From the sequence record NZ_CP096967.1: 39,376 nt of DNA; one strand, written 5' to 3'. This DNA is from a plasmid. The position numbers and the translations under genes are program-made. The notes under the pieces were generated by a model. That model was not told the origin of the DNA. It saw nothing but the letters and a program-made list of their open reading frames with translations, and ran no database searches. Each line of letters opens with the position of its first letter. Positions within the stretch are counted from its first letter, which is position 1. Below are positions 12,512 through 13,241 of this stretch, one piece after another.

Positions 12512-13241
12512 GGAAAGAAATTGATACCGTACTTTTCGGAGTTCCGGCACTGATGGGCAAACATGGCATGATGAAATGATACCGAATTATCATGCTCGAT
12601 ATATTCTGAAGAACGCCTTTTTGATACCAAATACAAAAAGCTGCCGGAAGCCGGACACAAAAAATTGATACCATAAAACATTAGGGAAAAAGAACAAAGA
12701 GAAAACACTATATATAAATAATATATGAATATATAATATATGAATATATAATATATGAACCTATAAACATATAATATATGATTAATATACTCCACTTCCA
12801 GAAAGAGCAACACGAAGAATCTTCTTTTCCCTAAAGTTCTTTGTGTCGTTTCTCTCTATATCTGAATACAGAAAAACGGCTGCATCATAAAAGAAACGAT
12901 ACCGACACCATTCAGGAACTATCGCCCATCAGCAAAAGGATTGCATCTAATTGATACCTTTTCTGCCTGCACTGGAGAGAAACCGGGAAGGTATTTGATA
13001 CCGTACTTTTCCGGGTTCTGCCCGGCATGGACGATAAGAGAACATTATTATGATACCAAAAACTTTAGGGAAAAATAAAACTTCGGCAGTCTATAAACCT
13101 AAAACTATTTTTAACAAAAATAATTGTCCTATTATTTGCGACATTTATAGAAAACCACTATCTTTGAGTATTGAAAATAAAGAGATAAACAAACCTTTAA
13201 AGCTGGTTTGGCTGCCAGTATAAAGAACAGCAAACAAAATT
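12512..13241 (+). repeat. Composite repeat, full copy A (modules G - TATATA microsatellite - M - P)
   Basis: Near-identical to 35200-35925 (inverted) and 31266-31770 (inverted). Eight TGATACC boxes are present. 14-mer TTTTCCCTAAAGTT at 12818, its reverse complement at 13063. Confidence 0.9.

Follow-up and report, generated by a model that had tools for sequence, protein, structure and literature searches.

Phased heptamer arrays at operon boundaries of a pBF9343-family conjugative plasmid

Plasmid sequence NZ_CP096967.1, analysed here over a stretch of 39,376 nucleotides (the window), carries between positions 12522 and 13057 a short word, TGATACC, which is repeated in one orientation at near-regular intervals in intergenic DNA. 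The arrangement raises the question of what is preserved in such an array and which molecule might read it. We find that boxes of this kind are held at strict spacings in several plasmid lineages and in metagenomic populations, that they are restricted to plasmids and that the element acts on double-stranded DNA and not on RNA. These features are most consistent with docking sites for a plasmid-encoded DNA-binding protein, for which a small XRE regulator is our leading but tentative candidate. At 39.4 kb, the window represents an entire conjugative plasmid, a member of the pBF9343 family.

Boxes, spacings and their conservation

We noted eight boxes in the region under study, which we refer to as copy A. 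Their GATACC cores lie at 12523, 12578, 12623, 12667, 12898, 12953, 12997 and 13052, all on the plus strand, and seven of the eight read TGATACC, box 5 being CGATACC. The initial annotation of this DNA was correct as to the single orientation and seven of these positions, but placed the last core at 13053. Over the whole window TGATACC occurs 35 times, compared with 3.4 ± 1.8 times in dinucleotide shuffles, none of 100 of which reached 35, and the enrichment against shuffled sequence that had been proposed as a check is thus borne out. Thirty of the 35 lie within arrays and the remaining five are strays inside genes. When the four variants found at box 5 (two CGATACC and two CGACACC) are added to these 30, the array boxes total 34, not the more than 35 counted previously, and have the consensus (T/C)GA(T/C)ACC. 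Both GATACC and GACACC are therefore present at box 5 within this one plasmid. The 34 boxes are distributed over six copies of one intergenic module, in agreement with the earlier description of the same organization in copies B1, B2, C, D and E. A position-weight matrix gives the core T-G-A-T/c-A-C-C with A/T-only positions on either side and no dyad symmetry.

The steps between neighbouring boxes in the window are exclusively 44, 45 or 55 bp. When the spacings of 13 loci were combined and any value of 42-57 bp was admitted, steps of 55 bp were found 70 times, 44 bp 59 times and 45 bp 17 times, with 43 and 56 bp occurring once each. As 44 and 55 bp correspond to 4 x 11 and 5 x 11 bp, the boxes would lie on one face of slightly underwound DNA. 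Chains of the hexamers GATACC/GGTATC at the array spacings have 17 members on the best strand and 32 on both strands, compared with a mean of 1.6 and a maximum of 9 in 100 shuffles. Spurious open reading frames (ORFs; for example 24489-24689, 31188-31388 and 12430-12813) traverse the arrays, and a coding explanation was rejected because the 44- and 55-bp steps are not multiples of three and the spacers are not conserved between lineages.

A blastn search with the module DNA gave no match beyond the pBF9343 family, except for a piece of the promoter described below. The same box, or GACACC, is found as triads with steps of 55 then 44 bp in plasmids pBFY46, pBACSA01 and NZ_CP103211 and in contig L009. 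pBFY46 has seven arrays and pBACSA01 four triads, all with GATACC boxes oriented alike and spaced 55/44(/44), and the backbone proteins of these two plasmids are 26-85% identical to those of the window; among the array-bearing plasmids as a whole the identity is 25-85%. NZ_CP103211 is more distant, with 50% identity for the type IV coupling protein (T4CP) and 37% for XRE; its five arrays are of GACACC, three being full triads and two having a degenerate third box, and the 55-then-44 order is kept. L009, a contig of a Bacteroidetes metagenome-assembled genome (MAG), contributes one GATACC 55/44 triad, and no homologues of the window proteins were found within its available 8 kb. In an alignment of seven independent arrays anchored on the first box, conservation is confined to the boxes, and the spacers of the diverged relatives could not be aligned to those of the window. 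That the word and the spacing are kept while the intervening DNA is not suggests a docking array for a DNA-binding protein.

The same pattern is seen at the population level in metagenomic relatives, for which loci were picked via the neighbouring XRE gene and thus independently of the boxes. None of the 21 box columns varies in copy B2, compared with 27 of 86 spacer columns (p=0.0015); the corresponding counts for copy B1 are 0/21 and 35/85 (p=1.3e-4). Insertions or deletions between boxes are absent from copy B1, and a few sequences of copy B2 have a single-base gap in the third spacer, which is possibly assembly noise. A first conservation test was dropped as circular, since its arrays had been chosen by their boxes, and a BLAST-based test was dropped because module truncations blurred the outcome. 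Box spacing, the feature of homologous elements on which the initial annotation had staked its interpretation beforehand, is conserved.

In a scan of 185,579 species genomes true triads were found only on plasmid-like contigs, most of the 40 matches being short-period tandem repeats or chance occurrences. A pattern scan of a viral collection yielded one mis-called family member (L121), the other matches being coding tandem repeats with periods that are multiples of 9. No arrays were found at any tested spacing in the Chondrinema, Prevotella and B. thetaiotaomicron 83-kb plasmids, or in plasmids with T4CP but without XRE (L117 and L118). We also note that family contigs L012, L014, L023 and L029 have been binned into MAGs labelled Tenericutes, Leptotrichiaceae, Blautia and Clostridia, and that L121 is filed as viral in IMG/VR; these labels are probably binning or classification errors.

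That the element acts on double-stranded DNA follows from the 11-bp multiples, from an inversion in NZ_CP103211 and from the inconsistency of RNA folds. All five arrays of NZ_CP103211 are inverted with respect to the flanking genes and to the side carrying TAGGGAAAAG and the promoter, with their internal polarity retained. The Rep iterons of the window are also phased, with a 22-bp period. We regard as highly improbable the alternative that the arrays are transcribed leaders or 3' untranslated regions (UTRs) in which the boxes and GC hairpins serve as attenuators or protein-binding RNA. The position of copy B1 inside a long operon, just ahead of a terminator-like hairpin, would suit such a role, as would the formation of the 5' arm of the hairpin by the last box in two relatives, and two window arrays fold somewhat better than shuffles (z -2.5 and -2.3). 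However, six arrays folded on both strands share no common fold (z-scores from -2.5 to +0.6, and about 0 in pBFY46 and L009), no array has an Rfam match, canonical promoters lie downstream of arrays, the NZ_CP103211 arrays are inverted relative to transcription and multiples of 11 bp are a property of duplex DNA.

Setting of the arrays on the plasmid

The arrays begin at, or a few bases from, the stop codon or terminator of one transcription unit, with the next unit downstream. They are found upstream of the toxin-antitoxin, mobC/oriT, relaxase-parA, T4CP-XRE and rep-side operons. The presence of the same motif upstream of several backbone operons is common to the window and three other lineages, and T4CP-XRE is the sole operon preceded by an array in all four. 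A full module comprises, in order, a left half-array (55/45/44 bp), the motif TTAGGGAAAAA, AT-rich 15-bp repeats, a right half-array (55/44/55 bp), a second TTAGGGAAAAA and a promoter. Module copies within the plasmid are 86-99% identical and occur in both orientations.

Copy A is a whole module on the plus strand (12522-13057), with four TGATACC boxes in its left half-array (boxes 1-4, 12522-12672, spacing 55/45/44) and CGATACC followed by three TGATACC in its right half-array (boxes 5-8, 12897-13057, spacing 55/44/55). Copies B1 and B2 are partial and also on the plus strand. B1 (boxes 6-8, 24575-24680, spacing 44/55) begins 4 nt past the stop codon of the upstream gene and lies ahead of the orf74, T4CP and XRE genes, whereas B2 (boxes 1-4, 27369-27519, spacing 55/45/44) lies between the convergent ends of the XRE and p146 genes, where cargo genes have been inserted in relatives. 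The remaining copies are on the minus strand. Copy C (boxes 5-8, 30435-30595, box 5 being CGACACC) lies between mobC and the relaxase-parA-p146 operon and is followed by AT-rich repeats. Copy D is a module at 31272-31744, of which the right half-array (boxes 5-8, 31272-31432) lies upstream of a promoter at 31235-31204, an oriT-like core and mobC, and the left half-array (boxes 2-4, 31649-31744) abuts isolated Rep iterons. Copy E is a whole module at 35385-35911; its right half-array (boxes 5-8, 35385-35545, box 5 again CGACACC) is upstream of a promoter at 35306-35275 and its left half-array comprises boxes 1-4 (35761-35911).

The promoter of copy A (13135-13166, plus strand, 83 bp past box 8) reads TTTG-N20-TATCTTTG and has the canonical Bacteroides form TTTG-N20-TAnnTTTG; it recurs on the minus strand at 35306-35275 and 37338-37307. 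From box 8 to the -33 element of the promoter the distance is 83, 42 and 84 bp in copies A, D and E, respectively. No promoter was found near B1 or B2. As a separate observation, the promoter, the 5' UTR and the first codons are triplicated before three different operons (13135-13246 on the plus strand, 35306-35195 and 37338-37228 on the minus strand), and the third copy, upstream of the gene for an ArdC-like protein, has no box array. Between B1 and orf74 there is a terminator-like hairpin, AATACCACTCT...AGAGTGGTATTTT (24695-24727, plus strand), 19 nt before the orf74 ATG. Across 24 distinct relatives this hairpin ahead of the T4CP operon keeps an invariant stem, whereas the loop varies. In the window and in L002 (25890-25925) and L003 (20611-20640) the last box, or an ATACC remnant of it, serves as the 5' arm of the hairpin; in pBFY46 and pBACSA01 the 5' arm is made by the last box itself. 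Adjoining copy D, upstream of mobC, is the oriT-like core (GCAAGATGTGTTTTTGTGTCCACAAAAAC...CTTGCC...CGCAACT; 31105-31190, minus strand), which is kept as far as the Cytophagales, being present in pBFY46, pBACSA01 and NZ_CP103211 and in Chondrinema, Pontibacter, Pedobacter, Adhaeribacter and Mucilaginibacter plasmids.

Several motifs accompany the boxes. The initial annotation described a small hairpin following each box, but the palindromes in question (CGGAgtTCCG, CCGGaagCCGG and CCGGGttctgCCCGG) are present only after boxes 1, 3 and 7. Dyad symmetry in the spacers exceeds that of composition-matched shuffles in the pBF9343 family (p<0.005) and in pBFY46 (p=0.02), with no excess over such shuffles in pBACSA01, NZ_CP103211 and L009. 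CCGG is 8-21-fold enriched inside the arrays of all four plasmid lineages compared (window, L002, L003 and L044), frequently as TTCCGGAA or as paired CCGG arms at a variable offset from the box; the same comparison gave no enrichment of GCGC or CGCG. GC-containing palindromic hexamers (TCCGGA, CTGCAG, AGATCT, CTCGAG and TTCGAA) pack the spacers of pBFY46, pBACSA01 and L009, where they are about tenfold enriched. Since this enrichment is lacking in the window and in NZ_CP103211, palindromic hexamers are not a general feature of the arrays.

The motif TTAGGGAAAAA is located at 12681-12691 (plus strand), 8 nt past box 4, and again after box 8. In this position after each half-array it is similar to the invariant half, AGGGACAAAAA, of the Rep iteron. 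The iterons themselves are 22-bp repeats, AGGGACAAAAACCCAACTTCTT, at 32050-32178, with isolated copies at 31776, 31818 and 32169; the half GGGACAAAAA is invariant across four plasmid lineages, whereas the other half is different in NZ_CP103211. The centre of the copy A module consists of 4.4 copies of the AT-rich 15-bp repeat ATATATAATATATGA (12703-12779), which is faced by an inverted degenerate unit (GACACA and TTTAGGGAAAAG; 12824-12848, minus strand). AT-rich repeats of 15 (or 30) bp stand beside arrays also at 30313-30416, 31550-31611 and 35653-35723, and likewise in L003 and L044, and in every lineage they also immediately precede the relaxase-parA-p146 operon. They could serve as a second operator or a centromere.

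With regard to the plasmid as a whole, 35.6-kb plasmids of Phocaeicola vulgatus, Bacteroides fragilis and B. thetaiotaomicron match region 12450-13250 at 100% identity, and pBF9343 itself does so at 97.5%. This region is carried by 30 PLSDB plasmids, with 5-11 matching places per plasmid. Hosts of the family span Bacteroides, Phocaeicola and Butyricimonas, the XRE protein cluster is found on more than 1000 contigs and the cargo of family members includes MACPF toxins. The genes encode a Bacteroidota-type type IV secretion system, MobC, a MOBP relaxase, a small ParA with a 146-aa partner (p146), T4CP, a 128-aa XRE regulator, an iteron-type Rep, an ArdC-like protein, a zeta toxin, HU and a serine recombinase. 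The last of these, a resolvase encoded at 37656-38264, is the sole recombinase of the window. A group II intron in traG, which explains part of the difference in size, and an IS256-like insertion are the main features that set the window apart from the 35.6-kb relatives. The intron (2288-4616, with a reverse transcriptase ORF at 2848-4494 and Rfam matches RF02012 at 2288-2438 and RF00029 at 4540-4616) splits the gene for the conjugation ATPase TraG into 1-2277 and 4503-5240. The IS256-like transposase gene (15727-16941, minus strand) lies between the zeta-toxin and M23 peptidase genes, where pBF9343 has no gene. Elsewhere on the plasmid, the starts of two paralogous lipoprotein genes (5927-6583 and 21670-22377) are covered by a near-identical 40-bp stretch (5922-5961 and 21689-21728).

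Candidate binders and proposed function

As the triads are found on plasmids only and the family crosses genera, the binder is most likely to be plasmid-encoded. Sequence-specific candidates common to all array-bearing lineages are XRE, MobC (a NikA-like ribbon-helix-helix, or RHH, protein encoded at 30728-31084), Rep and the ParA partner. In a comparison of backbone proteins an HU homologue was absent from NZ_CP103211, and there is no ParB/SopB-type helix-turn-helix (HTH) protein among the plasmid genes. XRE (128 aa; 26922-27308, plus strand) has a clear Cro/CI-type HTH, and the start of its gene overlaps the T4CP stop. It is favoured as a candidate by the array that stands ahead of T4CP-XRE in all four lineages and by the lack of arrays in the T4CP plasmids without XRE (L117 and L118). 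Its recognition helix has the sequence KQNAISN in the three lineages with GATACC and TQITVSR in the one with GACACC. A metagenome scan with the XRE alignment gave 69 loci with just two box types, GATACC and GACACC, and at all 63 array-bearing loci the window-type XRE is found with GATACC and the 37%-identical XRE with GACACC.

The suggestion of the initial annotation that the array is phased for cooperative binding of a protein has strong, though indirect, support in the conservation across lineages, the invariance of the boxes in populations and the 11-bp multiples, with binding itself predicted from sequence. In our view, the arrays are best read as sites of a global regulator, with XRE as the likeliest binder, a prediction that falls a little short of probable. 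A plasmid-encoded, sequence-specific protein would occupy each box as one protomer or dimer; the likeliest such protein is the 128-aa XRE protein, which is translationally coupled to T4CP. Four or five turns at 11 bp per turn would put three or four bound units on the same side of the helix, where protein-protein contacts could join them and loop or wrap about 100-150 bp, with the A/T-flanked boxes bending and the GC-richer spacers looping. Because the arrays are at operon boundaries, such a complex would make the expression of the maintenance, establishment and transfer operons depend on how much of one factor is present, probably through repression or insulation of the backbone operons, and the factor would control its own operon too. 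We consider doubtful a more far-reaching form of this proposal, in which the arrays would represent a new class of organizer. Isolated, asymmetric heptamers set 4-5 turns apart in polar 55-then-44 order would here nucleate a wrapped, nucleosome-sized particle at every operon boundary, coupling insulation or repression of transcription, segregation and transfer readiness, and a second factor might read the CCGG cores.

Several observations weigh against a global regulator with XRE as the reader of the boxes. XRE proteins normally bind dyad sites as dimers, whereas the box is asymmetric. A Chondrinema plasmid has a T4CP-XRE pair (35% identity) yet no arrays; this plasmid has homologues of both XRE and p146. 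The presence of GATACC and GACACC together at box 5 in the window means that the association between XRE and box type is not proof of co-variation. In NZ_CP103211 the RHH-like strand of p146 is altered in parallel, and the attempt to name the binder by co-variation was abandoned, as the XRE helix and the p146 strand both change in the GACACC lineage and the two candidates are inseparable by this approach. Arrays away from promoters are exemplified by B2, between convergent gene ends, and by B1, which is flanked by a stop codon and by a terminator 19 nt ahead of the next ATG. The boxes are clear of the -33 and -7 elements, which makes simple occlusion unlikely. Furthermore, a model based on a protein array leaves the CCGG enrichment of the spacers unaccounted for.

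The second candidate, p146 (27599-28039, minus strand), is a weak DUF3408 relative encoded next to a small ParA/VirC1-like Walker ATPase of 207 aa (28092-28715, minus strand), and it would be the binder if the arrays were a dispersed centromere or segrosome, that is, partition sites or VirC1/VirC2-like relaxosome-recruitment sites with secondary effects on promoters. We judge this to be rather unlikely. The ParA, a small Walker ATPase, gives CbiA/ParA and weak VirC1 matches. In p146 there is a basic KLRKK motif at the N-terminus and an acidic linker, the C-terminus can be aligned in register to the RHH of ParG, and helices are predicted at residues 100-111 and 115-129. The hhalign match is weak (E 8e-4, probability 25%, with a ParG sequence entered by hand), searches of PDB sequences and Pfam gave no RHH support, and the single-sequence AlphaFold model is of low confidence (predicted local distance difference test score, pLDDT, 44). 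An asymmetric 7-bp box would suit an RHH dimer, as in the omega heptads, but known RHH centromeres require contiguous repeats (PMC9499535). The spacing of about 44 bp recalls sopC (PMC3177203). Within the pBF9343 family copy C precedes the par operon and B2 directly follows it, and the promoterless B2 fits a structural role better than that of an operator; however, no array lies beside the parA or p146 homologue in pBFY46, pBACSA01 and NZ_CP103211. p146 is just 42% identical where the box is identical and is barely recognizable in NZ_CP103211. In addition, the AT-rich 15-bp repeats upstream of relaxase-parA would be an equally good p146 site, and parA-p146 lies in the mob/tra operon, like TraA/TraB of Bacteroides conjugative elements.

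Less likely still is a different binder, such as a MobC/NikA-type protein, Rep acting via the adjacent TTAGGGAAAA half-iteron, a small plasmid protein or a Bacteroidales host protein. MobC, with its NikA-like RHH, is found in all array-bearing lineages, copy D adjoins the conserved oriT-like core, and in NZ_CP103211 and Chondrinema the word GGTRTC is 2-3 nt ahead of that core; most arrays, however, are distant from oriT. A GACACC palindrome that Chondrinema has upstream of mobC falls within chance expectation (about 0.07), and it was rejected as a signal when it proved not to be kept in Pontibacter, Pedobacter, Adhaeribacter and Mucilaginibacter. For Rep, the likeness of TTAGGGAAAAA after boxes 4 and 8 to the iteron half AGGGACAAAAA is set against a box that is unlike the iteron, and a host factor predicts chromosomal arrays, none of which were found in the scan of species genomes. 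We consider it very improbable that the arrays are a mobile or recombination element (a miniature inverted-repeat transposable element, transposon ends or accessory sites) or a neutral, decayed tandem duplication. The modules are multi-copy, 86-99% identical and present in both orientations, cargo has been inserted beside B2 in relatives and a serine recombinase is encoded, all of which could point to mobility. On the other hand, the boxes are direct repeats with no terminal inverted repeats, syntenic operon boundaries are occupied in four lineages, pBFY46 and NZ_CP103211 have no homologue of the window resolvase and no transposase common to the array-bearing plasmids was found; the same observations speak against the Tn7- or Mu-like recombinase ends considered in the initial annotation. 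Neutral decay cannot preserve every 7-mer and every spacing while erasing the spacers.

Plasmids of the pBF9343 type are among the commonest conjugative plasmids of human gut Bacteroidales, and we found no studies of their regulation or segregation in the literature. One conserved cis-code at nearly every backbone operon boundary provides an experimental handle on the control of copy, stability and transfer. The signature GAYACC-N49-GAYACC-N38-GAYACC can be used to recognize this often mis-binned family in metagenomes. If the organizer class were to prove true, one plasmid factor would couple transcription, segregation and transfer readiness in the conjugative plasmid family that is most widespread among human gut Bacteroidales.

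Comparison with known systems

The literature searched yielded no account of the boxes, nor of any repeats on pBF9343 or pBFY46, which is consistent with the earlier statement that no such Bacteroides plasmid element had been described. As isolated heptamers at steps of 11n bp, the boxes have an unusual recognition geometry to set against contiguous centromere and operator repeats. Placement of a short motif at many backbone intergenic regions for plasmid-wide control recalls the KorB-OB sites of IncP plasmids, in which one 13-bp palindrome per site is spread over backbone intergenic regions, and the repeat-operator networks of R388 (StbA, ArdK and KorA). The direct repeats of StbA are adjacent 9-mers with an 11-bp period, and 11-bp periodicity for same-face binding is a further point of likeness. 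Neither system, however, is known to have isolated heptamers at steps of four to five turns in a fixed polar 55-then-44 order. The stb system of R388 is covered by PMC3098194.

The sopC centromere of the F plasmid is a run of 12 direct repeats, each 43 bp long and containing a 16-bp inverted repeat as its SopB site (PMC3177203). Like the present arrays, it belongs to a low-copy conjugative plasmid that encodes a ParA-type ATPase, and its protein-binding motifs all point one way at intervals of about four helical turns. It differs in being a single tandem block with conservation extending over the entire 43-bp unit, and its motif is a 16-bp dyad bound by an HTH ParB. In the arrays described here only an asymmetric 7-mer is conserved, the spacers are free and differ within and between arrays, steps of 55 and 44 bp alternate, groups of 3-4 boxes are dispersed over six places and there is no ParB/SopB-type protein.

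The heptads bound by omega (ParB) of pSM19035 are parS sites that double as operators (PMC9499535, PMC2441792). They share with the boxes a 7-bp asymmetric repeat and the presence of several arrays upstream of different plasmid operons, and omega is a single RHH protein that acts as a global repressor and, together with a small ParA, as a centromere binder, a layout to which that of the candidate p146 is comparable. However, omega requires at least four contiguous, gapless heptads (PMC9499535), whereas 37-48 bp separate the heptamers here; the two repeats have unrelated sequences, and p146 is a putative RHH protein. The Rep iterons of the same plasmid are also helically phased direct repeats (2 x 11 bp), and the half-iteron-like TTAGGGAAAAA flanks the arrays. 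Their sequence, AGGGACAAAAACCCAACTTCTT, is unrelated to TGATACC, and they are contiguous and confined to oriV beside rep, whereas the arrays are dispersed. We therefore place the arrays with the phased protein-binding repeats of plasmids but in no named family, since they are neither contiguous nor dyad-symmetric, are conserved in the box and not over the whole unit, are not accompanied by a ParB and are unrelated to the iterons.

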